The notes under the pieces are model-generated. The model was not told where the DNA came from. It did not search any database and worked only from the letters and a program-made list of their open reading frames with translations. The position numbers were made by a program, and so were the translations under genes. Shown piece by piece: positions 1 through 61,990 of a DNA stretch of 64,000 nucleotides. The DNA is from a virus. How positions within the stretch are numbered: the first letter of the stretch is position 1; each line of letters starts with the position of its first letter. The DNA lies in IMG/VR virus record IMGVR_UViG_3300005617_000581. One strand, written 5' to 3'.

Positions 1-66
1 TTGAACGACGCCGAGCGTAAATCCGCCGGCGAACCCCTGACAATCGATCGCCGTGTATACCACGAG

Positions 67-516
67 CTAGACTGTATCACCAGCGCCGCAGTAACGCGTA
101 CTGCAGGTCACGGCTGGATCGTCTAGGGCGCGGTGACACCAAGGACACTTGGACGAGACGCCGTCGTAGCCGTCGGCCTGGCGCTTAGCGTTGAGACGAC
201 CCTTCGTCTCGTATCGGGCAAATACCTCGCGCGCGAGCTCGACCGGATCGTCGCCGAGCGCCAGCAGCATGTTGATCCAAAAGTGCAGCACGTCGACCAG
301 CTCGCCGACGTACGCGTCGCGCTCGATGTGCCGCGACGTTGCCCACGACTTCCAGCCAACCTCGTCGAGCGCCTCACACAGTTCCATGATCGCGGCCTGC
401 TGCATCTCGCGAATGTAGACGACGCGCTCGGCGGCGAGCATCCGCTGAAAGTTACGTCCGAACGACTCGGTCTGTAGGTCGTGCTGGAGTCGGAACAGTT
501 CCTCAAACCTATCCAT
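67..516 (-). CDS. MazG-like all-alpha nucleoside triphosphate pyrophosphohydrolase (possible dCTP/dUTP-clearing enzyme) with C-terminal Cys-rich tail
   Basis: The ELCEALDEVGWKSW and EL(a)DVLHF helices match the MazG/dimeric-dUTPase EExxE and WKxW pattern. There is a C-terminal CPWC...CSTRYC segment. It is translationally coupled to the upstream gene by an ATGA overlap. Confidence 0.5.
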   Translation of the reverse strand: MDRFEELFRLQHDLQTESFGRNFQRMLAAERVVYIREMQQAAIMELCEALDEVGWKSWATSRHIERDAYVGELVDVLHFWINMLLALGDDPVELAREVFARYETKGRLNAKRQADGYDGVSSKCPWCHRALDDPAVTCSTRYCGAGDTV

Positions 517-1208
517 CAGCGTTGCGCCTCATTCTTAATGATCTCGGCGATTGCCTCGGGCGTTCCGAGGTCGCGCGAACTTACCAACACGGTTCGGTTT
601 CGACCGCCGTGCATGAACTGGGCGAGGTACGGTCCGATCGGCAGCTCGTGACCCGGCTCGACGAAGTGAATCATGCGGTTGAGCACCGAGTAGATGTTGT
701 CGATGCTGCCGACGAACGGCCCGACCCAGCACGGAACGAACAGCTCTTCGGTGTGCGGTAGTACCTTCTCGCGCCAGACGTTGTCGTCGTCGAGGAACGT
801 GTACCGCTGGGCGTCCTCGACGTTCAACATGCGGACGCCGATCGCGCCGTTGTGCACGACCCGCCGGACGTCCTCGTCGGTCGACAGGTTGTCGCCGAGC
901 AGCACCAGCACCCGATCGTCATCGGCGCGACAGGACGTTACGCCGTACAACAGCGCGTGTCCGGGTCCGCGCGGAGACGGCTGCAGGACGAAGAAGACCT
1001 CGTCGACGTCCTCTACCTCGCGCACGATGTCGATCGAATTCTCGGGCGCGACGACGACGACGATCCGCTCGGCGCGCGCCTCGCGCGCGAGCAGCACCGC
1101 ACGGCGTACCAGCGAGACGCCGTCAATCTTAAGCAGTGGCTTACCATACGGACCGGTGATCGACTCGATACGCCGGCCGCGACCTGCGGCGAGAACTACC
1201 GCATCCAT
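516..1208 (-). CDS. Nucleotidyltransferase (sugar-phosphate / MobA-GlmU-like NTP-transferase fold)
   Basis: The N-terminus VVLAAGRGRR...GKPLL is the classic G-rich NTP-transferase signature. Length is 230 aa. Confidence 0.55.
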   Translation of the reverse strand: MDAVVLAAGRGRRIESITGPYGKPLLKIDGVSLVRRAVLLAREARAERIVVVVAPENSIDIVREVEDVDEVFFVLQPSPRGPGHALLYGVTSCRADDDRVLVLLGDNLSTDEDVRRVVHNGAIGVRMLNVEDAQRYTFLDDDNVWREKVLPHTEELFVPCWVGPFVGSIDNIYSVLNRMIHFVEPGHELPIGPYLAQFMHGGRNRTVLVSSRDLGTPEAIAEIIKNEAQR

Positions 1209-2074
1209 CGTTCGACCTCCTCGACCAGCTTGTTAACGAGGAGCTGGAGCTCGTGTCGAATAGGTTCGGCCGGCGCCGTTCGGACGCCGCGCGCGGTATG
1301 GATCGCCGCGAAGTAGACCGCGGCGCGCGCCTCGTTCAGGTCGAAGCCGCGGTCGTCGTCCAGCCACATGTTGAGTACCTCGGCCACGGCGACCCGCGGT
1401 GGGTGGACGTCCCACTTGTCGGCGACCTCGCGCCGGTTGTAGCGGATCCGCTCGTAGCCGACGGCGGTCTGGATGACGCGGCCGACGTCGAGAGCCTCCA
1501 CGTCCGGCAACGCGGAGCAGCTCGGAATCGGATCGATCAGAACCCACGAGGGCTTGGCGAACGGCAGGTCCTGACGATAGAGCAGGTTCTCGGCGATCGG
1601 ATCGCCGTGGGTCAACGCGCGTTGTAGCGACGGCCAGTCGATCGACGCGGCGTAGCGGTCCAGCGTCTTGCGGTGCTGCGCGAGTCCGGCCTGGTTGAGC
1701 AGCTTAGCGACGTAGCGCCGGTGCTGGCGCGCGTTGTAGTAGTTGAGAGCCTCGAACCCCATTCCACGCAACCCAAATCCCCACAGTCCGACCTGAAGGT
1801 TGTCGAGAATGATCTGACAGATGTTCGCCCGGTCGCAGATCAGGTCTTCCAGCTCGGGCTGCTTCAGCAGCTCCATCTCGTAGCCGTTCGCTAGCACCCG
1901 ATAGACCTGCGGAAGAGACGCAACAGTGGTGTGGTTGCGCAGCCAGATTCCCTGGTCGCGGACGCGCGTTCCGGTACGCGGGGCGTCGAACTTCTTAACC
2001 TCGTCCTTCTCGAACACCAGCGTGGCGCCCGAGGAACCGGTCTGGATGTTAGTCTTGATGTCGTCGTTACTCAC
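1196..2074 (-). CDS. APH/choline-kinase-fold phosphotransferase (possible anomeric sugar kinase)
   Basis: It has the Brenner motif HGDPIAENLL and a downstream VLIDPIP (D-x-D/E) typical of aminoglycoside/choline/hexosamine kinase-like kinases. GTG start with a 13-nt overlap with the next gene. Confidence 0.5.
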   Translation of the reverse strand: MSNDDIKTNIQTGSSGATLVFEKDEVKKFDAPRTGTRVRDQGIWLRNHTTVASLPQVYRVLANGYEMELLKQPELEDLICDRANICQIILDNLQVGLWGFGLRGMGFEALNYYNARQHRRYVAKLLNQAGLAQHRKTLDRYAASIDWPSLQRALTHGDPIAENLLYRQDLPFAKPSWVLIDPIPSCSALPDVEALDVGRVIQTAVGYERIRYNRREVADKWDVHPPRVAVAEVLNMWLDDDRGFDLNEARAAVYFAAIHTARGVRTAPAEPIRHELQLLVNKLVEEVERWMR

Positions 2075-3429
2075 AGTCCCAACCTCGACTCGATGATCTT
2101 AAGGTAGTCCAGCGCGGCGATCGCGTCCTCGAAGTGTCGCCGCTGAAGCGTTACGGCCCACGTCCAGACCTCGCGGTCCACGTGAACCATGCGCACGCGC
2201 CGCGCGAGCTCCTTCGGCGACTTGACGCGCAGGAAGTCGTGTAGCTCCGTCGGCGCGCCGTTCAGGACGTGGTCCTGGTCGTCGTAGCGCGGGTGAAAGA
2301 AGCAGACGACGCCGAGGGCGAACGCCTCCCACGGCTTAGCGGTCGCCCAGCCCGAACCGGACGCGGGGGTCGTCAGCGTGCTGTGAACCGTGTGCATCGT
2401 CCCGGGGTAGTCGGCGAGCGGCAGCGGCTCGATCTCGCGGTTCAGGATCCGCCGCGACGCCTCGGACCAGTGCCCGTGCACCCACGCCGGATCCAGGGGG
2501 AGCACGTACTCCTGGAGCGCGCGCAGCCGCGACCTCTGCGGGGCGACCTCGCGCTTGGTCTCGTTGACGACGATGCCGAACGCGGCGCGGCCGTCCCAGG
2601 TATCGTCGAACTGCAGCGTATCGCCGAACGGCGTTCCAGGAATAAGTGACGAGATCTCGAGCCGCGCGTAGACGTTGCGTACCCGCGATTCCCAGATGCC
2701 GTCGTAGCTCTTCGCGGGAAACGCGGCGAGCAGTTCGTCGCCGCGGCCGTAGCGCTCGTGCTTCGCCGTCGAGGTGAACGTGTACTGCGACAGTACCGGG
2801 TGGCACCACGCCCACGCGGCGTCGCGGAACTTGACGTAGTTGCGCGCGTCCGAGTTGAGCAGCACCTCCTCGCGCGCGATCGGGTCGACGTCGCGCCACG
2901 CGTTGACGTTGTGCAGCAGGTAGCCCGCGTACAGCGTCGCCCAGTCGTACGGCTTCGTCAGCGTCGACCGGTCGCGGATCGACGGCAGCGGCGAGTTCGA
3001 CGTGCCGTGCTGGCCGATCCACATGACGATCTCGTCGAGCGACGCGAACGTATCGCGTGTCAGATCCACCATGAGCTGACGAACCCTTAGGTGATCGTCG
3101 ATCGTCAGGTTCGAGTAGTTCAGCCCGTCGGCGTTGAGCCGTTGACGCAGGATCGGCGCCCAGGTGCGCCACGGATTGAGGACGTTCTCGGGTAGACCGA
3201 CATCGGTTGGCTCCTCGCCCGAGTTGCGGCCCACTAGGAGGAAGTCGACGTCCGGGTGTCGTTCGGCGAGCAGCTTGAGGGTCGGTACCATCTCGTGATC
3301 GCCGCCGAGGCTGCCGCAGTTGGCGAGCTGAAGCGGCATGCTGCGGCCGAGCTTCGCGTAGCCGATGATCTTCCGTCTCACTTTCGTCTCCCTCTCGTGG
3401 TGACCGAGGAGGACTGCGTCCTCGGCCAC
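2071..3429 (-). CDS. Hypothetical 452-aa protein; possible Rossmann/GT-B-like transferase acting with the adjacent kinase and nucleotidyltransferase
   Basis: The N-terminus KIIGYAKLGRS...DVDFLLVGRNSGEE is a Rossmann-like beta-alpha-beta. It sits at the head of the nucleotide-modification gene block. No decisive motif was found. Confidence 0.3.
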   Translation of the reverse strand: MAEDAVLLGHHERETKVRRKIIGYAKLGRSMPLQLANCGSLGGDHEMVPTLKLLAERHPDVDFLLVGRNSGEEPTDVGLPENVLNPWRTWAPILRQRLNADGLNYSNLTIDDHLRVRQLMVDLTRDTFASLDEIVMWIGQHGTSNSPLPSIRDRSTLTKPYDWATLYAGYLLHNVNAWRDVDPIAREEVLLNSDARNYVKFRDAAWAWCHPVLSQYTFTSTAKHERYGRGDELLAAFPAKSYDGIWESRVRNVYARLEISSLIPGTPFGDTLQFDDTWDGRAAFGIVVNETKREVAPQRSRLRALQEYVLPLDPAWVHGHWSEASRRILNREIEPLPLADYPGTMHTVHSTLTTPASGSGWATAKPWEAFALGVVCFFHPRYDDQDHVLNGAPTELHDFLRVKSPKELARRVRMVHVDREVWTWAVTLQRRHFEDAIAALDYLKIIESRLGL

Positions 3430-7662: not shown

Positions 7663-8080
7663 GCGCGAGCAGCACGTGGCGCTGCGCGGCGTTCGCGTGC
7701 TGGTCGCGGGACGCGACGTACCAGCCCAGGTCGCGCAGCCGTTGATTAGACGCGATCCTTACCGCGGGACCCGGGTTCTGGTGCACCAGCTGCGCGCCGA
7801 GTTCGTTCGCGATCGCGTCGACCTGGCCGAGTACCTCCAGCGCGTGAGGCTGACGCGTCTTACGCGATCCCTGGACGAACCTCTCGATCGCGAAACACGT
7901 CGGACCCTGGGGTGTCGAACGCGGCGGCCAGTGGTGGTCGTCGAGCATGCGCCGGATCATCGTCCCGACGGACGACGCCTGGACCTCGGAGGTTTCCGGT
8001 CGGACGCAGTCGTCGCACCAGAGCGCGAGGCCGGTGACCTTGCCCGGATCGACGCCGAAGATAATCACTCGTCGACCCAC
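7616..8080 (-). CDS. RuvC-like Holliday junction resolvase
   Basis: The N-terminus IFGVDPGKVTGLALW matches the RuvC GIDPG-TG motif. Length is 154 aa. Confidence 0.65.
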   Translation of the reverse strand: MGRRVIIFGVDPGKVTGLALWCDDCVRPETSEVQASSVGTMIRRMLDDHHWPPRSTPQGPTCFAIERFVQGSRKTRQPHALEVLGQVDAIANELGAQLVHQNPGPAVRIASNQRLRDLGWYVASRDQHANAAQRHVLLALASLFPETFASIVGI

Positions 8081-9840
8081 TCCTTCTTGTCGCCCCAGCG
8101 TTCGCCGTACGAGACCGACGCGGTGATCGGCACCTCAAACTGCTGGTCGTCGTTCATCACCTGGCGCAGCGCGTGGACGGCGTCGGGAACGTCCTCGTTC
8201 GGTACCTCGAGGAAGATTTCGTCGTGGACCGGCGCGACCATGTAGTCGCCGAGTCCCGCGTCGGCGAGCTCGATCTGCTTACGCTTGAACAGCGCCGCGG
8301 CCCAGCCCTGGATCAGGTAGTTCACGAGCGCGTACTCCTTGCCGGGATCGGCCGGGTGCCGCCGGTCCGTCAGCGGGCAGACCGCGTAGGCGACTCCCTC
8401 CTCGTCGCGCCGTCGGACCGAGTCGCTAAAGACCTGCTGCGCGAACTTCTCGATGCCCGGGTATGCCGCGTTGAGTCCGTCGTTGACGTAGCGCATCTGG
8501 TCGTATGAGACGCCGGCCGTCGCGGCCTGGCGCGCGACACCCGCGCCGTAGATCTTCGCGTACATGGCGTTCTTCGTCGGCTGGCGCCGCGGGTCGGACT
8601 TGACCAGCGACGGATCGGAGAAGATGTTGCGCGCCACGGTGACGAAGAAGTCCTCAGGCGCCCGAAACGCGGCGACGAGTCCAGGATCCCGCGACATGAT
8701 CGCGAGGCCGCGCATCTCGATCTGGTCGAAGTCCGCCATCAGCAGCGTGTGGCCGGGCCGGGCGCGCACGCAGTTGCGGACGACCGTCGCCGCCGGGTTG
8801 TGCTCGTTTTTACGTGGTAGGTTCTGCAGGTTCGGGTGGTCCATCGAGCAGCGGCCGGTCCGCGTTCCGAGCGTGTTGATCGACGGGTGAACGCAGCCGT
8901 CGGACTGCGTGTGTTCCAGGTAGAACTTGAGGTACGTCGACGCCATCTTCTGGTACTGGCGCCGCCGTAGGACGGCCTGCGCGAGAGGGTGGTCGATTCC
9001 GTCGAGGACGCCCTTGTCCAGCGAGACGGCGCCGGACTTGGTGGCCTTGGAAAACTGGAAGCCCGCGTCCGCGAGGACGCGGATCACCTCGGCGTTGGAC
9101 CCGGGCTTGATGCCGTACTCGGCGGCGCACCAGCGCTCGACGCGCTCGGCGTAGTCGTTGAACAGCCCGTAGTTGTCGCGTACGTAGTCGACGTCGATCG
9201 GCGCGCCGTGCGCCTCCATCCGCTGCGCGACCCACTGGTACTCGTTCTCGAGTTCGTACGCGCGCGGCGCCTGGTCGAGCACCTTCGGTAGGTGGATGTC
9301 GCTGAGCCGCCGCGTCAGCACCGTGTCGAGCGCGCCGTAGAACCAGTACCCGGGATAGTCGGACGGTATCGTCGCCCACGTCCAGCCGTTCTCGGACATG
9401 GCGCGCTCGAGGACGCCCTGCGACGCGCGCGCCCGCGGGTCGACGTGCCGCGCGGCCTGGTTCTTGAGGGCGCGGGACTGCGTCGGTTCGAGGACGTGCG
9501 CCATGACGCCGACGTCACGAATCCGCGACCGGTCGACGCGGACCCCGGCCTGGTCGAGGAACGACCAGTCGAACTTAGCATTCATCATGTCGACCGGCCC
9601 GACGTGCTCGGCGACGGCTCCGGCGAACAACCCGGACCAGCGTCGCCAGGGCAGCGCCCAGCCGTCGTCGGCGTCGCCGATCTGGACGAGGCGGACGTAG
9701 TCGCCCGAGTGCCAGTAGAAGCCGGTCGTCTCGGTGTCGATCCCCAGCGGCTCGCCACGGCGCGCGCCGATCCACTCGGCGAACGCGCGGACGTCGTCGA
9801 GCGACTCGACGAGGTGCATCCGCGTGTCGTCCAGCGTCAC
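8065..9840 (-). CDS. polA: DNA polymerase I (family A) with 3'-5' exonuclease domain
   Basis: Exo I motif is LGIDTETTG. Pol motif A is DFDQIEMRGLA, motif B is RRQPTKNAMYAKIYGAG, and motif C is VHDEIFLEV. Confidence 0.85.
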   Translation of the reverse strand: MTLDDTRMHLVESLDDVRAFAEWIGARRGEPLGIDTETTGFYWHSGDYVRLVQIGDADDGWALPWRRWSGLFAGAVAEHVGPVDMMNAKFDWSFLDQAGVRVDRSRIRDVGVMAHVLEPTQSRALKNQAARHVDPRARASQGVLERAMSENGWTWATIPSDYPGYWFYGALDTVLTRRLSDIHLPKVLDQAPRAYELENEYQWVAQRMEAHGAPIDVDYVRDNYGLFNDYAERVERWCAAEYGIKPGSNAEVIRVLADAGFQFSKATKSGAVSLDKGVLDGIDHPLAQAVLRRRQYQKMASTYLKFYLEHTQSDGCVHPSINTLGTRTGRCSMDHPNLQNLPRKNEHNPAATVVRNCVRARPGHTLLMADFDQIEMRGLAIMSRDPGLVAAFRAPEDFFVTVARNIFSDPSLVKSDPRRQPTKNAMYAKIYGAGVARQAATAGVSYDQMRYVNDGLNAAYPGIEKFAQQVFSDSVRRRDEEGVAYAVCPLTDRRHPADPGKEYALVNYLIQGWAAALFKRKQIELADAGLGDYMVAPVHDEIFLEVPNEDVPDAVHALRQVMNDDQQFEVPITASVSYGERWGDKKEWVDE

Positions 9841-10343
9841 CGGTTGCTCCTGTCGAGGAATATGTCGGTGGACAGATCCTTATTGACGACGACGACGAGC
9901 CCGCAGTCGCGCATGAACCGGTACGAGTCGTCGCTGCGCCGGTGTTCGTGTTCCCGCTGCGAGTCCACGACGACGAACTGAAGGCCGGAGTTGGCGATGA
10001 GTTTAGCACAGGGCGTGCAGACGTGACTCGTGACGTAGAGCGTTCCACCCATGCGCAGCGTGCGGTCGCTCATGGTGATCGCGTTAGCCTCGGCGTGAAG
10101 CGCCGGGCAGTCCGAATAGTCGTTCGCCACCGGTTCGCCGTGGTTGCGACCGCGGGTGCACCAGTTGCCACAGCGCGCGTCCGCGTGGTCGAAGCCGCGT
10201 GGCGGTCCGTTGTATCCCTCGCCGATGACCTTACCTTCGACGTCGGTGATCAGCGCGCCGACCTGGTCGCGTTCGCATAGGCTGCGCTTCCCAAGGTCGC
10301 GCGCCATGGCGATGCGTACCTGGTGCCACGACGGTCGGGTCAC
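9837..10343 (-). CDS. dCMP deaminase
   Basis: Zinc-ligand motifs CPALHAEANAI (HAE) and CTPCAKLI (PCxxC) are both present. Confidence 0.8.
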   Translation of the reverse strand: MTRPSWHQVRIAMARDLGKRSLCERDQVGALITDVEGKVIGEGYNGPPRGFDHADARCGNWCTRGRNHGEPVANDYSDCPALHAEANAITMSDRTLRMGGTLYVTSHVCTPCAKLIANSGLQFVVVDSQREHEHRRSDDSYRFMRDCGLVVVVNKDLSTDIFLDRSNR

Positions 10344-11191
10344 TTCGCGACCACCAGCTCGGCGAACGTGTCCAGGTACCAGCGTTCGCTGTCCGTGGGC
10401 AGCGCGACGCTGCCGTTGCGGATCGCGCGGGCGCGCTGGCGGACGTCGTCGAAGTTGTCGCCGCCGTTGCCGATCCCGAAGTCGGGATAGCGTTCCTCGG
10501 TCGCGAGTCCCACCCGGTCAGTGACCTGGTACGACAGGTTGACGTGCTCGTGGTAGAGGTGCATCGACCACGCGGTGTGTGTGTACGTCCCGGGAAGGAC
10601 GCCGAGAACGTTGGCCAGCGTCAGCTGCAGCTGCGTGAACTGGAACATGTCGTACGGCAGGCCCAGCCACGCGTCGTTGGAGCGCATGGTGACGCGCATG
10701 TTCAGCGAGTCGTGGCGCGGACCGAGGCTGAAGCCGAGCGCGACGGTGCACGGGTAGTCGGCCTTGTTGCGGTAGTGGTTGTCCAGGTGGGAATCCCACA
10801 GCGTCACGACCGCTTGGCGACTCCACCAGTCGTCGCGCAGCTTGTCGACGACGAAGCCGAGCTGGTCGGCGACGCGCTCGCCGTAGGCGCCCCAGAAGTG
10901 GCCGTTGGGTTCGAGAAACTTCTTGAAGCTCGGGGCGATCCCGACCAGCCAGTCGGGATCGGAAAACCCGCCGATCAGCTGGATCGCCTCGGCGGCCGCG
11001 ATGCGCGCGTTGAGTCCCCGGCCGCAGCCGGTCGGCAGCGCGAACAGCGGCGACTCGACGTGGATCGTGTAGTCGTCCAGGTTGTACGTCAGTCCGTTGC
11101 GGGACGGGCGGCGCTGGCCGCGGCGGCGGAGGTCCTCGAGGACCTGGGGGTAGACGTCGCGACAGTAGCGACCGTCGATGAGTCGGGCCAC
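10340..11191 (-). CDS. Thymidylate synthase homologue (ThyA fold), possibly a pyrimidine hydroxymethylase/methylase with altered base specificity
   Basis: The catalytic Cys context YPCTVALGF is present. The RSNDAWLGLPYDMFQF block aligns to ThyA R(S)xD..LGxPFN, but carries Asp (PYD) where ThyA has the uracil-specifying Asn. Confidence 0.7.
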   Translation of the reverse strand: MARLIDGRYCRDVYPQVLEDLRRRGQRRPSRNGLTYNLDDYTIHVESPLFALPTGCGRGLNARIAAAEAIQLIGGFSDPDWLVGIAPSFKKFLEPNGHFWGAYGERVADQLGFVVDKLRDDWWSRQAVVTLWDSHLDNHYRNKADYPCTVALGFSLGPRHDSLNMRVTMRSNDAWLGLPYDMFQFTQLQLTLANVLGVLPGTYTHTAWSMHLYHEHVNLSYQVTDRVGLATEERYPDFGIGNGGDNFDDVRQRARAIRNGSVALPTDSERWYLDTFAELVVAK

Positions 11192-12159
11192 GTTCCTAGG
11201 TCCTCCTGCTTAGTAAGCGCGAGCGCGATCAGGTTACCGTACTCGCCGCGCTTAAGATGATGAAAGCGCCGGACGTACTGCGGGTGAGGTACGACGCCGT
11301 GGGGCACCGCGAGCTGCGCGAGTCGTCGCTGCGCGTTGCGGCCGAGCGCGACGGTACGCGGGCGTCCGAGCGAATCCCACAGCCGGCGCGGATCGTCGAC
11401 GTCGCACGCGTTGGCGAGCCCGTAGCGGATCGTCGTTCCCGCGTCGGCGAGCGCGCCGCGCAGGAAGTGTCCCGACGTACCCGGGAACGGCAGGAACGCC
11501 GGATCCGTGTTGGCGCGCGCCTCACGGGACGACGGGTCGACGTGGCGCAGCTCGTGGCGGACGTCGCCGAACAGCAGGAACTCTGGGTGCCGAGGTCCCG
11601 AGTACGTCGTCGTCACCAGGTCGACGACCGTGGACTCGCGGACGTGCGCCAACTTGACGACGCGTTCGACCTCCGAGTTCAGCGGCGACGACCACTGGTA
11701 GAACTGCTGCAGCTGGAACGAGCGCAGCCGCACGTCGCGGTAGGCCCTGTCGACCAGCGGCAGCTCGTCGAGCAGCGCGTCGACGTCCTCGCCGCGCTCG
11801 GCGTAGACGCGCCGGTACGTCGCCAGGTCGCCGTAGACGTAGACCACGAGGGCGCCGAGCCGGGCGAGCAGGGACTCGATGGCCCACCACGCGGCGTCGT
11901 CCAGCTGCGAGACGCGACCGCGCAGGGCGGGATAGACGCGCTCCCCCCAGTGCCAGCGGTCGAGGATTAGGTGCGGCGACCTGCCGGGTCGATACCCCGA
12001 GATCGGCCGGAGGTACTCGTCCAGTGGGTGGCCGACCGGGGGTCCCTTGTGCATCCGGACGACGCCGCGCGCGTGGTCGCGTTCGTCGAGAAATTCTTCC
12101 AGTGCCTCGGCGAGCGTCGTCTTACCGCCGCCGTCCGGGCCCTCTAGGATTATGAGCAC
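11089..12159 (-). CDS. Thymidylate-kinase-like P-loop kinase fused to a divergent uracil-DNA-glycosylase-superfamily domain
   Basis: The N-terminus LIILEGPDGGGKTTLAEAL is the dTMP-kinase signature. C-terminal LPFPGTSGHFL and HPQYVRRF resemble UDG family-4 motifs (PFVGxAGxLL, HPSxxxR). There is an approx 100-nt overlap with the downstream ThyA-like gene through a low-complexity tail. Confidence 0.5.
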   Translation of the reverse strand: MLIILEGPDGGGKTTLAEALEEFLDERDHARGVVRMHKGPPVGHPLDEYLRPISGYRPGRSPHLILDRWHWGERVYPALRGRVSQLDDAAWWAIESLLARLGALVVYVYGDLATYRRVYAERGEDVDALLDELPLVDRAYRDVRLRSFQLQQFYQWSSPLNSEVERVVKLAHVRESTVVDLVTTTYSGPRHPEFLLFGDVRHELRHVDPSSREARANTDPAFLPFPGTSGHFLRGALADAGTTIRYGLANACDVDDPRRLWDSLGRPRTVALGRNAQRRLAQLAVPHGVVPHPQYVRRFHHLKRGEYGNLIALALTKQEDLGTWPDSSTVATVATSTPRSSRTSAAAASAARPATD

Positions 12160-14420: not shown

Positions 14421-14894
14421 TTAGACCACCGCCCGGTTGACGTACGCGTCCCGGATGTCCGCGTCGAACTGGGACGCGACGGCCAGGGCGCGCGCGTGCT
14501 GCGGCGGCATGAACGTCTCGCCCGGCCGGTCCCCACCTGGGGGACGCCGAACGGTCAGGAACTCGACGACCTCGTACGCCGATTGGGTCTCGAGGACCTT
14601 CTCGAGCGTTACCTCGCCGGGCGCGCGCGACCGGCCGACCCGGACGACGACGTAGTCGTCGCGACTCGGCTCCACGTGGTGACGCCGGTAGATCGCCAGT
14701 TCGATCCAGCGGCACGCCGAGCACGTCGTGCCGCGCGGTACGACGCCGTCGGCGTCGTGCGGCCTCGCGTTGTGTCCTATCTTTTGACTGGAGGCGACGG
14801 CGAGGACGCGGCCGTCGAACTCGTAGCTTCGACCGTCGGCCGTGAACGTGATCCGGTGCAGTTCGCCGACGGCGAACCTAGGCATGGTAGTCAA
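14421..14894 (-). CDS. Hypothetical protein (first gene of leftward operon)
   Basis: 157-aa ORF whose start abuts the divergent control region. Confidence 0.45.
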   Translation of the reverse strand: MTTMPRFAVGELHRITFTADGRSYEFDGRVLAVASSQKIGHNARPHDADGVVPRGTTCSACRWIELAIYRRHHVEPSRDDYVVVRVGRSRAPGEVTLEKVLETQSAYEVVEFLTVRRPPGGDRPGETFMPPQHARALAVASQFDADIRDAYVNRAVV

Positions 14895-15071
14895 GTCAAT
14901 TCTCCTCTCATCTCCTTGTTGGTCTTCGGTTTCGGGTCGGTCCCCGCGGATAAAATCAGCATATGTTTTAGCCCCGAAACGCGCCCCCGGGATCGTCTCT
15001 GGCGAGTTCGATCCCGGGGGCGACGCGGTCCCTGGGGAGGACCGTGGAGCCCCGAAGGAGGCGCCCAGCTG
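14895..15071. promoter_or_regulatory. Divergent intergenic control region between leftward and rightward operons, carrying a 13-bp inverted repeat and an AT-rich near-palindrome
   Basis: CGCCCCCGGGATC at 14982-14994 pairs with GATCCCGGGGGCG at 15010-15022 across a 15-nt spacer. TAAAATCAGCATATGTTTTA lies at 14951-14970. The RBS GAAGGAGG precedes GTG at 15072. Confidence 0.4.
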
Positions 15072-17522
15072 GTGACTACACTACCACAAGCCCCGCTAGA
15101 ACCCCGCGACCAGGGGGAACGTATACTCGCGGCCGCGCGGGAGCACGCCGCGGCCGGAGTTCGGATCTTTCCGGTCCACGGACTGCGGCGCGTCGTTGCG
15201 CCCGAAACCGGGGGACTCGACGTCCGCACGGAGCTACGGTGCGGCTGCGGCGACGCCGCGTGCCCCAACCCCGGTAAGCACCCCGTCGGGCTGCTCGTCC
15301 CGAACGGGCACAACGGCGCGACGACCGAGCCGGGCACGATCGACCGGTGGTTTAGGCTGCCGTCGGCCCGCGACGCCAACGGCTGGATCCCGTACAACAT
15401 CGGCGTCGCGACCGGGCGCGGACTGGTCGTCGTCGACGCCGACGTCAAGCAGGCGCGACCCGACCTGCCGACGGGACTGGACGTACTGGACGACTGGGAG
15501 ACGTGGACCCAGGGGACGACGCTTCCCGACACGCTGACGATCCGCACCGGCGGCGGCGGCCGCCACCTGTGGCTGCGCGTCGATCGGAACGTCCGCGTCG
15601 CGGCGCGCAACCGGGTACTGCCCGGGATCGACCTGAAGGGCGACGGCGGCTACGTCCTGGCGACGCCGTCGCTGCACGTTTCGGGCCGCTACTACGAGGT
15701 AGCGCGCGACCTGGAGGCCGCCGAGGCGTCCGTCGAGCTGGTCGCGTGGCTGCTAACGGTCCGCGGCGGCCGCTACGTCACCAAGCGCGCGGGCGACGCC
15801 GCGGGCGTCGTCCCGGACGAGTACGACTTTAGGGCGATCGTCGGCGGCGTCCGCGGCTGCGCGGCCGGGCATCGGGACTACTTCGTCAACGACCTGTGCT
15901 TCAGGCTGCGGCGCGCCGGCTCGACGGTCGAGGAGGCCGCCCGGGCCCTCAGGCGCGAGTGGCTGCGCATGGAGCAGCCCGCGGGCGACGAGTTTCCGTG
16001 GGAGTCCTGCCTGTACAAGCTGCGCCGCGTCTGGGACGAGGTCACGCCGCAGGAGGTCGTCGACATACCGGCGTGGCGACCGCCGTCGGCCGCGTCGGCG
16101 ACGTCCGGCGCCGTCGAGCCCGAGGACGACGACGGACTCGGCGGGCTGTCGGCCGCCGAGGCGCTGGTCCGGCCGGAGCTGACGTTCCTGCTGACGGACA
16201 CCGGCAACGGGATCCGGTTCGCCCAGCGGATGCGCGAGGTCGTCCGCTACTGCCCGGGCGAAAATAGGTGGTACACCTGGGACGGACTCCGGTGGCGGCT
16301 GGACGCCAAGCGCGAGTCCTTCCTCCTAACGGAGGAGGTCGTCAAGGACCTGTACGTCGAGGCCTCGCGGCTGCCCGAGCACGAGCGCGACCGGGTCGAG
16401 CGCTGGGCGATCACCAGCCAGTCCGTCGCCCGCCGCGAGGCGATGCTGTCCGCCGCGGGGGCGCAGCCCGGGATCGCGATCGAACCGGACGACATGGATC
16501 GGGACCCGTGGCTGCTGGTCGTCCGCAACGGGACGCTGGACCTGCGGACCGGCGCGCTGCGCGCGTCGGACCCGCGGGACCTATGCACGCGGCTCGCCGA
16601 GGTCGACTTCGACGCCGGGTCGCGGGCGCCGCTGTGGCTGAAGCACGTCGAGTTCGTCACCGACGGCGACGACGTGCTCGCCGAGTGGCTGCGCAGGGCC
16701 GTCGGCTACACGCTGACGGGACTGACGGACGAGCAGAAGCTGTTCTTCCTGTGGGGCAACGGCGCCAACGGCAAGTCCACGTTCGTCGACGTCGTCGCCT
16801 CGATGCTCGGCTCGTACGCCGCGCAGGCGGACGCGGGACTGCTGGTCGGCGAGCGCGAGCACCCGACGCAGCTCGCCGGGCTGCGCGGGGCGCGGCTCGT
16901 CGTCGCGGACGAGACCGAGGCCGGGCGCAGGCTCGCCGAGCGCCGGATCAAGGCCCTGACCGGCGGCAAGAAGGTCCGGGCGCGCTACATGCGCCAGGAC
17001 TACTTCGAGTTCACGCCCCGCTTTAAGATCTGGATCACGGGCAACCACAAGCCGGAGGTCGCCGGTACGGACGGCGGGATCTGGCGCCGCCTCAAGCTCG
17101 TCCCGTTCCGCGCGACGCTGGACGACGACCGCCGGATCCTAGGATACGACGAGGTGCTCCACCAGGAGCTGCCGGGCATACTGAACTGGGCCTTAGACGG
17201 ACTCGCCGCCTGGCGGACGATCGGCGGACTCGGCGAGCCCGAGGTCGTCGGCGAGGCGACGCGCGAGTACCGGTCGGAGGAGGACACGATCGGGCTGTGG
17301 CTGTCGGAGCGCGCGGACCTGGGGGTACGGGACGCCGCCGCGGCGAACGCGCAGCTGTACGAGTCCTACCGCTGGTGGTGCCACGCCAACGGGATCCAGG
17401 ACGTCCGGTCGAACGTCGCGCTCGGCCGGGAGCTCGCCGCGCGCGGACTCAGGCGGGAGATCGTCAAGCTGGACGGCAAGACCACCCGCGTCTGGTACGG
17501 CGTCGCGCTGCGCGAGCAGTAG
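15072..17522 (+). CDS. Bifunctional DNA primase-polymerase / D5-type helicase (prim-pol N-terminus, P4-type primase C-terminal NTPase)
   Basis: The N-terminus GVRIFPVHG...HPVGLLVPNGH is prim-pol-like. The C-terminus has Walker A GNGANGKSTF and Walker B LVVADE. Start is placed at in-frame GTG 15072 with the GAAGGAGG RBS. The ORF track opens at 14496, but that stretch overlaps the divergent minus-strand gene. Confidence 0.8.
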   Translation: MTTLPQAPLEPRDQGERILAAAREHAAAGVRIFPVHGLRRVVAPETGGLDVRTELRCGCGDAACPNPGKHPVGLLVPNGHNGATTEPGTIDRWFRLPSARDANGWIPYNIGVATGRGLVVVDADVKQARPDLPTGLDVLDDWETWTQGTTLPDTLTIRTGGGGRHLWLRVDRNVRVAARNRVLPGIDLKGDGGYVLATPSLHVSGRYYEVARDLEAAEASVELVAWLLTVRGGRYVTKRAGDAAGVVPDEYDFRAIVGGVRGCAAGHRDYFVNDLCFRLRRAGSTVEEAARALRREWLRMEQPAGDEFPWESCLYKLRRVWDEVTPQEVVDIPAWRPPSAASATSGAVEPEDDDGLGGLSAAEALVRPELTFLLTDTGNGIRFAQRMREVVRYCPGENRWYTWDGLRWRLDAKRESFLLTEEVVKDLYVEASRLPEHERDRVERWAITSQSVARREAMLSAAGAQPGIAIEPDDMDRDPWLLVVRNGTLDLRTGALRASDPRDLCTRLAEVDFDAGSRAPLWLKHVEFVTDGDDVLAEWLRRAVGYTLTGLTDEQKLFFLWGNGANGKSTFVDVVASMLGSYAAQADAGLLVGEREHPTQLAGLRGARLVVADETEAGRRLAERRIKALTGGKKVRARYMRQDYFEFTPRFKIWITGNHKPEVAGTDGGIWRRLKLVPFRATLDDDRRILGYDEVLHQELPGILNWALDGLAAWRTIGGLGEPEVVGEATREYRSEEDTIGLWLSERADLGVRDAAAANAQLYESYRWWCHANGIQDVRSNVALGRELAARGLRREIVKLDGKTTRVWYGVALREQ

Positions 17523-26774: not shown

Positions 26775-27647
26775 GTGATGTTCATTAGTATTTTGATCTT
26801 ATTGTTGGTCGTGGCCGGACTGGTCGCCATCCTCAAGGGCAGCGTCGGCACGGGACAGGACGAGTTTTCGATCCGCTGGATCGGCGGGGTGCTGCTCGGC
26901 ATCGCGTTCGTCGTGTTCCTGCTCGCGACCATCGTGATCGTTCCGACTAAAAACGTCGGCGTCGTGACGGCGTTCGGCCGTCCGACGGGCACGCTTCACA
27001 ACGGCATTCACGTCGTCTGGCCGTGGGAATCGGTTACCGACTACGACGCGACGATCCAGACGTTGTCGACGTCTGACATGCACGTGCGAATGGTCAACGG
27101 CACCGCTACCGCGAACGTCAACGTGACACTTAACTGGCGCCTGGAAGGTGACATTCAGCAGATTCACGTCGACTGGCGCGAGTTTAGCCGCATCCAGACA
27201 TACGTCATTCAACCTCGACTGCAGGACGCGCTGAACAAGGAGTTCATCGACTTCGACCCACTCGTCGCGCTGAAGCAGACTGGCGGTAAGCCGATCTCGA
27301 TGGTGACCATGGAGCAGCGCGTCGCCGAGCGTCTGCAGCACAGCCTGCCCGCCGGTATCTTCGTCGATCACCTGCAGCTGCCGCTGGTCGTCTACCCCGC
27401 GGTCGTCCAGGACGCGCTGAACGCCTACCAGAAGGAACTGGCTAACACGCAGGTCGCGCTGCAGCAGAAGATCACGGCGCAGGCTCAGAAGGACGCGCTG
27501 GATATCTTGTCGCAGGTCCGGATGTCGCCGGAGGCGTTCCTGCAGCAGTGCCTGATCATGACCGAACGCCTGGCGCAGCAGGGTAAGATTATCTCGCAGA
27601 CCTGGTCGTGTGTGTCTGGTTCGGCCGGTACTGTAGCGATTAAGTAG
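26775..27647 (+). CDS. SPFH/band-7 (prohibitin/HflK-like) membrane protein
   Basis: N-terminal TM helix, then a TKNVGVVTAFGRP...HVRMVNGTATANVNVTLNWRL SPFH core and a coiled-coil tail. Lower GC than surrounding genes. Confidence 0.55.
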   Translation: MMFISILILLLVVAGLVAILKGSVGTGQDEFSIRWIGGVLLGIAFVVFLLATIVIVPTKNVGVVTAFGRPTGTLHNGIHVVWPWESVTDYDATIQTLSTSDMHVRMVNGTATANVNVTLNWRLEGDIQQIHVDWREFSRIQTYVIQPRLQDALNKEFIDFDPLVALKQTGGKPISMVTMEQRVAERLQHSLPAGIFVDHLQLPLVVYPAVVQDALNAYQKELANTQVALQQKITAQAQKDALDILSQVRMSPEAFLQQCLIMTERLAQQGKIISQTWSCVSGSAGTVAIK

Positions 27648-31844: not shown

Positions 31845-31932
31845 GGTACACGAGGACCGCGAAATCTTCGCGGTCCTCGGCTACTTTGGCCGACAAAGTG
31901 ATATTATGAACAGGAAACGAGAGGAGAACGAG

Positions 31933-32982
31933 ATGAAGCTCAATAAGACACGCCGCTCGACGGCGACCCTGCTCGGGGTCGCGTTCGGGGACGCGATGGG
32001 ACGCAACACGGAGTTCGTCTACTCCGTCAAGGAGATCGTGCGCCGCAACCTGGTCGTGTACGACCTGCCGCGCCCGGCCCTGGTCACCGACGATACCGAC
32101 ATGACGCGCTACGTCTGTCGCGCGCTGTTGGCTGTCGACGACGTCGCTAACCTCGAACACGCGTTCGTCGAGCAGTTCATCGACTGGTACGACCAGATGG
32201 ACTCGGGCCGCAAGCCCGGCTCGTCGTGCATCCGCGCGGTGCGCAGCCTGATCGCGGACTCGAAGCACGACTGGCTGAGCAACACGGACCCGTTCGCCAA
32301 GGGATGCGGCGCCAACATGCGCGTCGCGCCGGTGGCGCTCGACACGCGCCTGGTGCCCGACTTCGAGGCCGTCGCGAACGTCGCGCAGCTCCAGTCGGCG
32401 ATCACGCACGCGCACCCGACCGCCCTGGCGGCCGCCGAACTGACGGCGTACGCGATCTGGCTGCTGCGCTGGGAGAACTTCGCGCTCGACGCGCGGCTCA
32501 TCGAGGCGCTGCTCGAACGGTGCGACTCGCAGCGCGGCGTCTACCGCGAGGACGTGCTCGGCGACCTGGCTAAGTATTGGTCCGACCGCAAGGCGATGGC
32601 TGGCTACGGTCGGCGCTGGAAGCCGGTCAACGCTAAGCGCGCGATGCAGCTCGGCTGGGACGAGGTGCTCGGCTCGATCCTCGACGTGTACGACGCGTAT
32701 ACGCTCGAGGACGTCGGCGACGACGTCTGTTCCTACACGGGAGGTGGCTGGATCGCCGAGGAGGCGCTAGCCGGTGCGCTGCTGGCGGCACTGTGGCACC
32801 CCGAAAATCCGGTCCGCGCACTGATGCGCGCCGCGACGACGTCGGGTGACTCGGATTCGCTGGCCAGCATCGCAGGCGCGCTTCACGGCGCGTGCTACGG
32901 GTACGACGCGTGGCCTCACGACTGGTACGCCCGCATCGAATTCGGCGACGAGCTCGCCGAATACGGCGAGCGCTGGGACTAG
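31933..32982 (+). CDS. ADP-ribosylglycohydrolase family protein (ARH/DraG-like)
   Basis: GVAFGDAMG, TEF and VTDDTDMT are the ARH-family Mg-binding signature. Preceded by ACGAGAGGAGAACGAG-ATG. Confidence 0.6.
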   Translation: MKLNKTRRSTATLLGVAFGDAMGRNTEFVYSVKEIVRRNLVVYDLPRPALVTDDTDMTRYVCRALLAVDDVANLEHAFVEQFIDWYDQMDSGRKPGSSCIRAVRSLIADSKHDWLSNTDPFAKGCGANMRVAPVALDTRLVPDFEAVANVAQLQSAITHAHPTALAAAELTAYAIWLLRWENFALDARLIEALLERCDSQRGVYREDVLGDLAKYWSDRKAMAGYGRRWKPVNAKRAMQLGWDEVLGSILDVYDAYTLEDVGDDVCSYTGGGWIAEEALAGALLAALWHPENPVRALMRAATTSGDSDSLASIAGALHGACYGYDAWPHDWYARIEFGDELAEYGERWD

Positions 32983-57534: not shown

Positions 57535-58233
57535 GTGGCCACCGGTGTTAAAACCACGCGCTACGCGGTGATCCCAACACACAATCGGATCGAACAGCTC
57601 ACCGCGCTGATACGTACGCTCAAGGCGCAGAACTGCGACCACATAATCATCATCGACAACGCGTCGGATCCACCGGTATCCGAGCTCTGGCTACGAACGC
57701 AGACCGACGCGCCTACCGTCGTCGTGCGCGACGAGGAACAGCCGCCGAACCTGTATCGAATGTGGAACCGCGGGTTCGGTCTAGTTGAGATGACGGCGCG
57801 GACGTTTCGTGAGGTTACCTGGGACGTCGTCGTTCTCAACGACGACGCCGAGCTTCCCGACGGCTGGCTCGACTACGTCACGTCGGGCCTGCGTCAGGTG
57901 GAATCGGCCGTCGTGGCCTGCACCGATCCGTACGGAACGCTTCATGGGGCGCTGCTTAAGACCCAGCCCGACGGCAACATCCAGACGCGCATGTGCCCGT
58001 GGGCGTTCGTCGTCCGCGGCGAGCGCGGACTACGCGCCGACGAATCGCTGCGCTGGTGGTGGGGCGATACGGACTTCGACTGGCAAGCCTGCTCTGCCGG
58101 AGGTGTGCTGCTACTACCCGGCTACACAACGAAAAACACGTGCGCCAACTCGACGACGCACGGGGCGCTGGCCGAGCAGGCCGGACGCGATGGCCAGACG
58201 TTCGCACAGAAGTGGGGATGGCGGCCGTGGTAG
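57535..58233 (+). CDS. Glycosyltransferase family 2 (GT-A)
   Basis: YAVIPTHNRIEQL...IIIIDNASD...VVLNDDAE has the GT2 N-terminal signature and DxD. Confidence 0.6.
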   Translation: MATGVKTTRYAVIPTHNRIEQLTALIRTLKAQNCDHIIIIDNASDPPVSELWLRTQTDAPTVVVRDEEQPPNLYRMWNRGFGLVEMTARTFREVTWDVVVLNDDAELPDGWLDYVTSGLRQVESAVVACTDPYGTLHGALLKTQPDGNIQTRMCPWAFVVRGERGLRADESLRWWWGDTDFDWQACSAGGVLLLPGYTTKNTCANSTTHGALAEQAGRDGQTFAQKWGWRPW

Positions 58234-58859
58234 TCGCGTATGGCTGCTGCGTCGGCTCGTGGGAGAAGTATCATGCCTACGTCGAGCCGTGGATCTTCGC
58301 CGAAACGATCGGGCGTCCGATCGTTTTGATCGAAAATCCGCCGTCGATCGGCGTGGCATACAACCAGATGCTCGACTCGTATCGGAGTTGGGCCGTCGAC
58401 GCCGTCGTGCTGCTACACGATGACCTAGAGATCACCGATCCACGAGCCGAGGTTAAGTTCCTCGAGGCGCTAGCCACGGACCCGGAGATCGCGCTGGTCG
58501 GCGTCGCCGGTGGGCACGGCGTCGGCTCGCTCGCGTGGTGGAACGCCAACACTGTCGGTCACCAGCTGATCGACTCTGGCATGCTGGACTTCGGCGAGCG
58601 CACCGGCTACGTCGACCTGCTGGAGGGCAGCATCCTCGTCTTCTCACCCTGGGCTGTCGAGAACCTTCGGTTCGACGAGGACTTCGCCGGATTTCACGGT
58701 TACGACGACGTCGCGATGATCGCGCACTCGTACGGCATGCGCGCCTACGTCACCGACGTCGATACACACCACCACACGCAGCTCGGCTTTAAGTCCGAGG
58801 AGAGCGCGCGGGCGTGGTTCGCGGCCGACGAACGATTCCGTCAAAAGTGGGGATTCTAG
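58218..58859 (+). CDS. Glycosyltransferase-like protein (GT-A-like, HDD motif)
   Basis: VVLLHDDLEI is DxD-like. 16-nt overlap with the upstream gene. Confidence 0.4.
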   Translation: MAAVVVAYGCCVGSWEKYHAYVEPWIFAETIGRPIVLIENPPSIGVAYNQMLDSYRSWAVDAVVLLHDDLEITDPRAEVKFLEALATDPEIALVGVAGGHGVGSLAWWNANTVGHQLIDSGMLDFGERTGYVDLLEGSILVFSPWAVENLRFDEDFAGFHGYDDVAMIAHSYGMRAYVTDVDTHHHTQLGFKSEESARAWFAADERFRQKWGF

Positions 58860-60065: not shown

Positions 60066-60073
60066 GAGGACGA

Positions 60074-61155: not shown

Positions 61156-61157
61156 CG

Positions 61158-61745: not shown

Positions 61746-61990
61746 AGATTCCCGAGGAACGTAAGGGTGACGGTCCGTGTCAAAACTGTGCACAGGAATA
61801 CTTCGACTGGTCAGCCGATAATGCGTTCTGGAATAATGTCATAGCGGAGTGGAAGGGTGTTGACTGGACCGGAGGGGATCCTGGAGCGATTCTCTGCATA
61901 ACCTGCTTTGGCGTCATCGCGCATAATCTAGGTTACGACATGATCGGCTTTCGTATGACGCCTGAGTGGCGTTGGCAGCGACGTCTATGA
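61739..61990 (+). CDS. Hypothetical small protein (83 aa), lower GC
   Basis: In-frame ATG 61739. CQNCAQEY...ILCITCFG. Confidence 0.35.
   Translation: MVEIPEERKGDGPCQNCAQEYFDWSADNAFWNNVIAEWKGVDWTGGDPGAILCITCFGVIAHNLGYDMIGFRMTPEWRWQRRL

Follow-up and report, generated by a model that had tools for sequence, protein, structure and literature searches.

The window analysed here, a 64,000-nt stretch of DNA of the IMG/VR virus record IMGVR_UViG_3300005617_000581, carries a homologue of thymidylate synthase (TS) within a phage operon, with the following features:

10340..11191, minus strand: TS-homologue open reading frame (ORF), 283 aa, thymidylate-synthase fold, predicted dCMP hydroxymethylase
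10637..10684, minus strand: motif RSNDAWLGLPYDMFQF, aa 170-185 of the TS homologue (from alignments)
10745..10759, minus strand: D145-Y-P-C148-T149 of the TS homologue (from alignments)
11089..12159, minus strand: 356-aa fusion protein, N-terminal YorR/dTMP-kinase-like P-loop kinase and C-terminal UDG-fold domain
9837..10343, minus strand: dCMP deaminase (Pfam dCMP_cyt_deam_1, E 3e-14; PHROG dCMP deaminase, E 7e-33)
8065..9840, minus strand: family A DNA polymerase (Pol A), directly downstream in the same operon (Pfam DNA_pol_A, E 4e-62)
2071..3381, minus strand: conserved 436-aa protein, a weak candidate for a GT-B-type, possibly DNA, glycosyltransferase
516..1208, minus strand: sugar-1-phosphate nucleotidylyltransferase (Pfam NTP_transf_3 and NTP_transferase)
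67..516, minus strand: all-alpha NTP pyrophosphohydrolase, dUTPase_2/MazG-like (Pfam dUTPase_2, E 1e-11; PHROG dUTPase, E 4e-31, and NTP-PPase)

The cassette follows the order dNMP-kinase/UDG-fold fusion, TS homologue, dCMP deaminase and Pol A. The 3' end of the fusion gene overlaps the TS-homologue gene by 103 nt, and the longest deaminase ORF begins at a GTG that overlaps the TS-homologue stop codon; the source's gene caller starts the deaminase 36 nt downstream. The nearest cultured relatives of the polymerase are those of actinophages (≤39% identity), and a megablast search of the 8-13 kb portion of the window against phages returned nothing, indicating that the source phage has no close cultured relative.

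The TS-homologue ORF starts with GTG, preceded by a Shine-Dalgarno AGGAGG approximately 10 nt upstream (the coordinates include the stop codon), and its product matches Pfam PF00303 (Thymidylat_synt; E 4e-21). The AF2 model (pLDDT 92.6) was compared with known structures using Foldseek, and the best fold match was MilA, a hydroxymethylase; the TS fold and the equivalents of the catalytic Cys146, Arg166, Tyr94 and Glu58 are all present, with E68 corresponding to Glu58 and Arg125 to E. coli Arg126. An identical protein was found in two independent samples, and 522 IMG/VR stretches encode relatives. These were picked by the motifs MRSND[AV]W and PYDxFQF, a seed that contains the Asp discussed below, so that the scan shows co-occurrence within loci of this Asp-bearing (D) type rather than a contrast between D-type and N-type loci. 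Databases label the protein and its relatives as thymidylate synthase; however, its best NCBIfam ThyA score was 57.6 bits, for a model whose cut-off is 327 (model cut-offs range from 108 to 576), and TIGR03284 gave 44.1 against 108, so far under the cut-offs that the protein is not a ThyA equivalog.

We next consider the position that specifies the base in TS, where the earlier note had read PYD for PFN, that is, Asp in place of Asn177. Asp181 of the query (codon GAC at 10649-10651) falls in the same column as E. coli ThyA Asn177 and T4 gp42 Asp179, as that note had anticipated, and the other equivalences of the block are R170=R166, S171=S167, D173=D169 and G177=G173 (query = E. coli). The assignment was obtained four ways, among them HMMER searches against TS sequences of the PDB and MilA, MAFFT alignment with E. 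coli ThyA and T4 gp42 (the T4 sequence used being 99.6% identical to that of a T4 genome) and Foldseek on the AF2 model; all literature-named E. coli positions carried the expected residue letters. It is unambiguous because the alignment is gap-free from the R166-S167-x-D169 block to 177. Structure-guided alignment, fixed beforehand as the refuting test, placed no Asn at the specificity position. Asp181 was invariant in the 120 nearest homologues (120/120), as were D181, D173, S171, R170 and M169 in the family alignments; the presence of Asp in all of these homologues, in two independent samples and in 522 IMG/VR relatives shows that it is neither chance nor a sequencing error. Position 177 is Asp in the T4 hydroxymethylase, MilA and BcmA, and Asn in TS and the SPO1 dUMP hydroxymethylase (PMC5175136). 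Mutagenesis established it as a major determinant, with N177D shifting TS towards dCMP, and Asp at 177 is over-represented among metavirome contigs with modified cytosine (PMC8670742).

The remaining pocket residues follow the same pattern. The bulky hydrophobic residue at 143, His147 and Gln165 of canonical TS are replaced in the query by Asp145, Thr149 and Met169 (codon at 10685-10687, directly 5' of the motif), and D145, the catalytic C148 (C146) and T149 were invariant in one of the alignments (A2); D145 is thus an acidic residue at the Leu143 position and T149 lies at that of His147. At positions 147, 165 and 177, the query, T4 gp42, MilA and the 5-hydroxy-dCMP synthase 9iqc have Thr, Met and Asp, canonical TS has His, Gln and Asn, and five dUMP hydroxymethylase-type sequences (SPO1 gp29, SP10 and PaMx11, together with the Salmonella phage 38 (ViI-like) and Montesquieu relatives) have N147/N(I)165/N177. 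The query bears the complete residue set of experimentally characterized enzymes specific for cytosine. An acidic residue at 143 is described as giving water access and hence a non-methyl, hydroxymethyl product (PMC13326640). The sugar-reading residues are of the deoxyribose type, namely Ser171 (=Ser167) and Arg125 (=Arg126), and the ribose-preferring Ala at 167 and Lys at 126' of CMP hydroxymethylase, which are Ala176 and Lys133 in MilA (PMC5175136), are absent. D173 (=D169) and the G177-L-P loop are kept.

By overall sequence, the protein is nearer to phage dUMP hydroxymethylases (PaMx11, E 4e-23; SPO1, E 2e-19) than to T4 gp42 (E 0.009), with which no close sequence or clade relation was found. 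Given this higher similarity to dUMP hydroxymethylases, the assignment as a dCMP hydroxymethylase rests on active-site residues and not on clade membership.

The neighbouring genes were conserved in the related IMG/VR loci, with a TMPK-like kinase in 78 of 80, a dCMP deaminase in 79 and Pol A in 78, and the TMPK-like kinase also adjoins the D-type homologue in DSL-LC01, GodonK, GMA2, AXL3 and the Manatee contig. The kinase domain of the fusion (approximately aa 1-180; the UDG-fold domain spans approximately aa 185-320) is a predicted 5-hm-dCMP (dNMP) kinase. The all-alpha NTP pyrophosphohydrolase is a candidate dCTPase/dUTPase; in AXL3 and the Manatee contig, an analogous PRA-PH-type NTP-PPase is the neighbour of the D-type homologue. 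The nucleotidylyltransferase, whose NCBIfam matches of GlmU/RmlA N-domain type are all under cut-off, is a candidate source of an NDP-sugar. The 436-aa protein lies within 10 kb in 25 of the 80 loci; Pfam Glyco_trans_1_2 matched 18 of the 47 members of its family (best E 4e-7), its sole specific PDB profile match was T4 DNA beta-glucosyltransferase (E 0.15), and hhalign gave a probability of 47%, so that the family (436/452 aa) can be put forward only as a weak GT-B candidate. In metaviromes, GT-B DNA glycosyltransferases are reported to occur in association with TS homologues (bioRxiv 2023.12.21.572611). Searches of the window for DHFR, ThyX or a second TS (tblastn and the ThyX motif) found none, and the neighbouring 292-, 177-, 353- and 150-aa proteins gave nothing usable in Pfam, PHROG, NCBIfam or PDB.

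[quoted passage not shown] Similarity of the fusion kinase to the PaMx11 5-HMUDK was confined to the P-loop (E 0.17), and among the neighbouring proteins neither a Pfam match to aGPT-Pplase nor a 5-HMUDK was found.

The same circular genome also carries a gene for a seemingly intact C5-cytosine DNA methyltransferase (C5-MTase; motifs FxGxG, PPC, ESV and QRRR); this enzyme is conserved on at least 14 contigs bearing a D-type homologue. Such an enzyme would be left without substrate if all cytosine were 5-hydroxymethylcytosine (5hmC); replacement may therefore be partial, or the pathway different, and the conservation of the C5-MTase argues against total replacement. A TET/5mYOX partner was sought, and the nearby 306-aa ORF had no Pfam, PHROG or PDB match.

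Taken together, the fold, residue identities, conservation and gene neighbourhood lead us to propose, with a probability of roughly 65%, that the TS-homologue ORF encodes a folate-dependent deoxycytidylate 5-hydroxymethylase. The suggestion of the earlier note that a modified dCMP rather than dTMP is made agrees with every published specificity rule applied and with the T147/M165/D177 triad of our own comparison. Between the 5-hydroxymethyl and 5-methyl products, which that note had left open, the acidic residue at 143, the lack of DHFR in the window and the MilA-like fold of the model favour hydroxymethyl. In the proposed reaction, Cys148 would attack C6 of dCMP, Asp181, replacing the uracil-reading Asn, would orient and protonate N3/N4 of cytosine, and the methylene of CH2-THF would be transferred to C5. 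With Asp145 in place of the water-excluding Leu143, the pocket would be open and the exocyclic methylene hydrated, yielding 5-hm-dCMP and THF instead of methyl reduction with release of DHF. The adjacent kinase domain would then phosphorylate 5-hm-dCMP, host NDP kinase would form the triphosphate and the phage Pol A would incorporate it, while the dCMP deaminase and the all-alpha NTP-PPase would shrink the competing dCMP/dCTP pool and supply dUMP for host dTMP synthesis. The GT-B-like protein and the sugar-1-phosphate nucleotidylyltransferase of the same operon may glycosylate 5hmC in DNA. We infer the substrate, the product, its incorporation and any glycosylation from these features; the phage probably makes 5hmC for its own DNA, which would extend a known means of countering restriction to a new phage lineage.

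A more speculative extension, to which we give limited credence, is that the cassette is an independently assembled actinobacteriophage pathway of cytosine hypermodification that yields a new 5hmC-derived base from parts unseen before (the lineage, the fusion, the C5-MTase and the GT-B protein). The dCMP hydroxymethylase would then have arisen in the siphophage pyrimidine-hydroxymethylase lineage and not that of T4; the fusion of a kinase with a base-flipping UDG-fold domain could act on 5hmC in DNA (or police U/5hmU) and not just on free nucleotides; the C5-MTase-fold enzyme may act on 5hmC-containing DNA; and the divergent GT-B transferase would use a phage-made NDP-sugar.

Several other activities were weighed against dCMP hydroxymethylation. 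An XP12-type dCMP methyltransferase, producing 5-methyl-dCMP and DHF by reductive methylation, would fit the report that TS also acquires dCMP methylase activity when residue 177 is Asp (Liu & Santi 1992; Hardy & Nalivaika 1992; both as cited in PMC8670742), and Xoo-sp2 gp64, a D177 TS homologue of a phage that we infer to be XP12-like, adjoins DHFR. That protein, however, has N143/P147/L165, unlike the query, whose position 143 is an invariant Asp, neither bulky nor neutral; with no DHFR detected by tblastn in the window and a hydroxymethylase as the best fold match, we consider this activity improbable, and in this case, too, the conserved C5-MTase would be no less superfluous. Still less can be said for a flavin-dependent 5-hydroxy-dCMP synthase of the kind of RB69 gp48, DLP3 gp80 and HY126 (PDB 9iqc), which would give 5hoC for ether-linked glycosylation. 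It shares the 147/165/177 triad of the query, but its diagnostic substitution D169N (PMC13326640) is absent, D173 being invariant where 9iqc has Asn, and the query keeps the folate-contacting D-x-W-L-G-L-P in place of N-C-A-V-V-M-Q-L; such an activity is thus very improbable.

It is also conceivable, though quite improbable, that 5-hm-dCMP is made and then deaminated by the coupled dCMP deaminase to 5-hm-dUMP, so that 5hmU or a derivative replaces T and C is left for the C5-MTase. The deaminase adjoins in 79 of 80 loci, with the start of its longest ORF on the TS-homologue stop codon, the conserved C5-MTase implies unmodified C in the DNA, and dCMP deaminases (EC 3.5.4.12) accept some 5-substituted dCMPs. 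In T4, however, the dCMP hydroxymethylase likewise occurs together with a deaminase, and the route is unparsimonious, as phages that make hm-dUMP (SPO1 and PaMx11) use a deaminase with an Asn-type hydroxymethylase; the window neighbours also include no detectable 5-HMUDK or aGPT-Pplase. In addition, AXL3 DNA resists enzymes with G/C-only sites (HaeIII, MspI, HhaI and NotI), for which a modification of T is no explanation. Finally, the protein might still use dUMP despite Asp181, as a thymidylate synthase or dUMP hydroxymethylase. The overall sequence, the database labels and the adjoining dUMP-making deaminase point that way, but at 147, 165 and 177, the base-specificity positions, the protein has the invariant residues of cytosine-type enzymes, mutagenesis studies single out 177 as a major determinant (PMC8670742), the scores fall far under the ThyA cut-offs and AXL3 has a separate ThyX beside its D-type homologue, making dUMP a highly unlikely substrate.

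If dCMP hydroxymethylation is correct, a large family of uncultured, high-GC phages of actinobacterial type (encoding WhiB), seen as hundreds of metagenomic contigs of approximately 60-70 kb, would replace some or all of its cytosine with 5hmC before replication. The same would hold for GodonK, GMA2 and related cultured phages of Gordonia, whose enzymes are now annotated as thymidylate synthase. Our literature search found no report of 5hmC in actinophages and no DNA-modification data in the DSL-LC01, GodonK and GMA2 papers. Many 'thymidylate synthase' and 'thymidylate kinase' labels would then need re-annotation, and the 147/165/177 signature offers a classifier that is simple to apply and to check. 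Restriction digestion, cloning and sequencing of the phage DNA may then give unexpected results, and actinophages used in therapy or biocontrol may escape host defences, or set them off, in unforeseen ways. For enzymology, the fusion of kinase and UDG-fold domain presents a concrete new target.

Among known systems, T4 gp42 (EC 2.1.2.8; PDB 1B5E/6L18) shares with the query the TS fold, the catalytic Cys, the Glu58 equivalent, Ser167/Arg126 and Asp169, as well as Asp177, Asp143, Thr147 and Met165, identical in kind, and it is likewise accompanied by dNMP kinase, dCMP deaminase and NTP-PPase, with a GT-B glycosyltransferase as a possible further partner. MilA, the CMP 5-hydroxymethylase of Streptomyces rimofaciens (PDB 5JNH/5B6D), differs in having Ala176/Lys133 for Ser171/Arg125 and belongs to an antibiotic gene cluster, whereas the TS homologue lies in a phage replication operon. 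E. coli ThyA (EC 2.1.1.45) has in common with it the fold, the catalytic Cys and R21/E58/Y94/R126/R166/S167/D169/G173/H207/Y209; in contrast, the query shows L143D, H147T, Q165M, N177D, R127Q and W80F, and it lacks both a TS-type C-terminus and, in the window, a DHFR partner. The 5-hydroxy-dCMP synthases depart from it in D169N, an altered folate loop and the use of flavin and O2, the query retaining D169 and the L-G-L-P loop.

The phage dUMP hydroxymethylases (SPO1 gp29, SP10 gp188, PaMx11 gp51/M6 and ViI-like; E 1e-17 to 4e-23) are the closest functionally known proteins by overall sequence and share Asp143, a siphophage/replication-module context and a dCMP deaminase, with Arg126-Gln127 common to the query, SPO1, SP10 and ViI-like; however, they have Asn at 147, 165 (or Ile) and 177 in place of Thr, Met and Asp, and their partners 5-HMUDK and aGPT-Pplase were not found beside the query. 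A cultured counterpart is provided by Stenotrophomonas phage AXL3, whose gp27-gp30 are annotated as dCMP deaminase, 'thymidylate synthase', 'thymidylate kinase' and NTP-PPase. AXL3 gp28 is 34% identical to the query and has D143/T147/M165/D177, gp29 is the same kinase and UDG-fold fusion (hmmsearch, 1e-27), and the fusion, TS homologue and deaminase stand in the order of the query with the NTP-PPase alongside. In support of the proposed assignment, no restriction enzyme tested whose site includes G or C cut AXL3 DNA. AXL3 differs from the source phage in its proteobacterial host, its 47.5-kb genome, its own ThyX and a small-molecule-type SAM methyltransferase; its DNA resists 35 of 37 restriction enzymes, being cut only by those that recognize AATT and TTAA (PMC7504290).

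The thymidylate synthase (TS) homologue, which starts at a GTG codon with an AGGAGG ribosome-binding site ahead of it, was aligned with E. coli ThyA, T4 gp42 and all other TS-family sequences used, and in no case did a gap fall between R166/S167/D169 and position 177 (E. coli numbering). Its Asp181 (codon GAC, nt 10649-10651; residues 170-185, RSNDAWLGLPYDMFQF) is therefore the counterpart of Asn177 of E. coli ThyA, Asp179 of gp42 and Asp186 of MilA; it is invariant among the 120 nearest homologues, confirming the earlier note's claim of an Asp at the uracil-specifying Asn position. A structure-guided view agrees with this assignment, since MilA gave the best superposition on the AlphaFold model of the protein (47 homologues, pLDDT 92.6). 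An identical protein was found in two independent samples, and relatives are encoded on 522 IMG/VR stretches recovered through the query's own motifs. The gene and its associated features are as follows:

67-516, all-alpha NTP-PPase, further along the TS operon
516-1208, - strand, sugar-1-phosphate nucleotidylyltransferase, same operon as the replication genes
2071-3381, - strand, candidate GT-B-type protein, 436 aa, highly conserved
10340-11191, - strand, TS homologue, 283 aa (Pfam Thymidylat_synt, E 4e-21)
11089-12159, - strand, fusion of a P-loop dNMP-kinase-like and a uracil-DNA-glycosylase (UDG)-fold domain, 356 aa, directly upstream of the TS gene with a 103-nt overlap
L098:55-1551 (end of the source contig, ~66.9-68.4 kb, outside the window), C5-cytosine DNA methyltransferase, 498 aa, motifs FxGxG, PPC, ESV and QRRR intact

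An Asn at position 177 recognises uracil, an Asp cytosine (PMC8670742; PMC5175136). At position 143 a bulky Leu keeps water out and yields the methyl product, Asp or Glu there accompanies hydroxymethyl or other products, and D169N marks flavin-dependent 5-hydroxy-dCMP synthases (PMC13326640). Ser167 and Arg126' go with deoxyribose, and the Ala and Lys of MilA with ribose (PMC5175136).

Residues at positions 143, 147, 165, 169 and 177 (E. coli numbering; reference genes taken from public phage genomes)
D-type, with Asp177 (query, DSL-LC01, GodonK, GMA2, AXL3 gp28, Manatee Spring 'pyrimidine hmase'): D, T, M, D, D
Characterised cytosine enzymes (T4 gp42, MilA): D, T, M, D, D
dUMP hydroxymethylase type (SPO1 gp29, SP10, ViI-like phage, PaMx11, Montesquieu): D, N, N (Montesquieu I), D, N
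Canonical TS (E. coli ThyA, Rhizobium phage RHph_I34 gp181): L, H, Q, D, N
5-Hydroxy-dCMP synthase (PDB 9iqc): E, T, M, N, D
Possible dCMP methylase (Xoo-sp2 gp64, beside DHFR): N, P, L, D, D

The query residues at these positions, together with the deoxyribose-type Ser171 and Arg125, form the signature of a folate-dependent dCMP hydroxymethylase, a function to which we assign a probability of about 65% from the active-site residues and the mutagenesis literature rather than from clade membership; the cytosine preference and modified-dCMP product proposed earlier are probably right in this form. Further support comes from the low score against the NCBI ThyA models (best 57.6 bits; cut-offs 108 to 576 bits), combined with the lack of a DHFR, ThyX or second TS in the 64-kb window. 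By overall sequence, the query matches phage dUMP hydroxymethylases (E ~1e-17 to 4e-23) better than T4 gp42 (E 0.009), and its base-specificity triad is a departure within an apparent siphophage pyrimidine-hydroxymethylase lineage.

The gene neighbourhood was surveyed at 80 IMG/VR loci carrying a D-type homologue (36-96% identity), with partners counted within 10 kb. A dCMP deaminase and Pol A, the genes 3' of the query, were present at 79 and 78 loci, respectively, the kinase domain at 78 and the UDG-fold domain at 71 (kinase-fused in 70). The fusion protein, modelled as two domains (pLDDT 90.7), was missed by the gene caller of the source record, which instead annotated a spurious 237-aa ORF running in the opposite direction. 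Kinase-UDG fusions also lie next to the D-type TS in AXL3 (gp29) and DSL-LC01, and a kinase adjoins the D-type homologue in DSL-LC01, GodonK, GMA2, AXL3 and the Manatee contig; none was found in the 14.7 kb examined of the Asn-type PaMx11 locus. The UDG fold that is joined here to a P-loop kinase is a base-flipping glycosylase fold.

From the observed fold, residues, conservation and synteny, we infer a substrate, a product and its presence in DNA. The enzyme would hydroxymethylate dCMP, with Cys148 as nucleophile, Asp181 reading cytosine and Asp145 permitting hydration; the fused kinase would then phosphorylate the product, which Pol A would use once it had reached the triphosphate level, with the deaminase and NTP-PPase lowering rival dC nucleotides and providing dUMP. 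The 436-aa protein might conceivably glycosylate 5hmC: its family partly matches Pfam Glyco_trans_1_2, its only specific PDB profile match is T4 DNA beta-glucosyltransferase (E 0.15; hhalign 47%), and this glycosyltransferase-like protein is present at 25 of the 80 loci. With the sugar-1-phosphate nucleotidylyltransferase it forms a possible DNA glycosylation pair.

The C5-methyltransferase complicates complete replacement of cytosine. Its gene directly follows that of the NTP-PPase on the circular map, the protein ends in a wHTH-like tail, and at least 14 IMG/VR contigs with a D-type homologue encode a full-length relative of it (49-67% identity). Because DNA in which every C is 5hmC would offer this enzyme no substrate, its conservation together with the D-type homologue fits poorly with full replacement. 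Replacement may be partial, or the methyltransferase may differ in timing or in substrate; alternatively, 5-hm-dCMP may be deaminated to 5-hm-dUMP. No TET-like partner for the methyltransferase was found. Its presence lowers confidence in complete replacement, not in the cytosine specificity of the query.

The window (G+C ~65%) derives from a 68,414-nt metagenomic contig (ENA ERZ27251806 k141_2806559), of which it covers 64,000 nt. The contig ends in at least 100 nt that repeat window 21-120 (L098:1-300 compared with window 1-120), in keeping with a circular k=141 assembly, and the phage genome is thus complete at ~68.3 kb. It is of the tailed-phage type, with the replication and nucleotide-metabolism operon leftward, structural genes rightward and a WhiB gene; Pol A is closest to actinophage polymerases (<=39% identity), and Megablast of 8-13 kb of the window against phage sequences returned no cultured relative. 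Other features in the window include:

14496-17522, Prim-Pol/D5_N primase-helicase, ~800-1000 aa
25326-25808, HAD/PNKP-type phosphatase
26775-27647, SPFH/Band-7 protein
31906-32982, ADP-ribosylglycohydrolase
57535-63063, + strand, directly 3' of the minor tail genes, cluster with three to four GT2 and one GT4 glycosyltransferases, an NDP-hexose C-methyltransferase (58860-60065) and a further SAM methyltransferase
63137-63445, WhiB regulator

The 57535-63063 cluster presumably resembles the virion-glycosylation cassettes of mycobacteriophages; alternatively, it could feed DNA glycosylation.

Among other phages, the cultured Gordonia phages GodonK (L002) and GMA2 (L016) carry D143/T147/M165/D177 despite their 'thymidylate synthase' and 'thymidylate kinase' labels; judged by these residues, the annotations are probably wrong, and modified cytosine may be present in the DNA of both phages. 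Close relatives by tblastn similarity include Phendrix and Forza. Mycobacterium phage Zenon gp78 (L012:4857-5861) has D143/T147/M165 but Asn at 169 and 177 (MRSNNAFRILPFNVFEF); with D169N, the '5-hydroxylase' signature, alongside an Asn177 of the uracil type, it may act as a 5-hydroxy-dUMP synthase. Xanthomonas phage Xoo-sp2 gp64 (L010:3533-4498) has Asp177 with N143/P147/L165 and, flanked by dCMP deaminase and DHFR, looks like a putative XP12-type dCMP methylase.

An experimental anchor is provided by Stenotrophomonas phage AXL3, which has in common with the query phage the core of fusion, D-type TS and deaminase, with NTP-PPase alongside, but has a ThyX of its own. AXL3 DNA resisted 35 of 37 restriction enzymes, including those with G/C-only sites, and was cut by AATT and TTAA cutters only (PMC7504290), the pattern predicted by global cytosine modification. 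Asp177 TS homologues are already an established marker of cytosine-modifying phages, and pathways associating GT-B DNA glycosyltransferases with TS homologues have been catalogued in metaviromes (bioRxiv 2023.12.21.572611). Less ordinary here are the actinophage-type genomes of the lineage, including cultured Gordonia phages annotated 'thymidylate synthase', the close linkage of the D-type TS to a kinase-UDG-fold fusion and the coexisting conserved C5-methyltransferase; relative to T4 gp42, the query is alike in predicted function without close kinship to the gp42 lineage.
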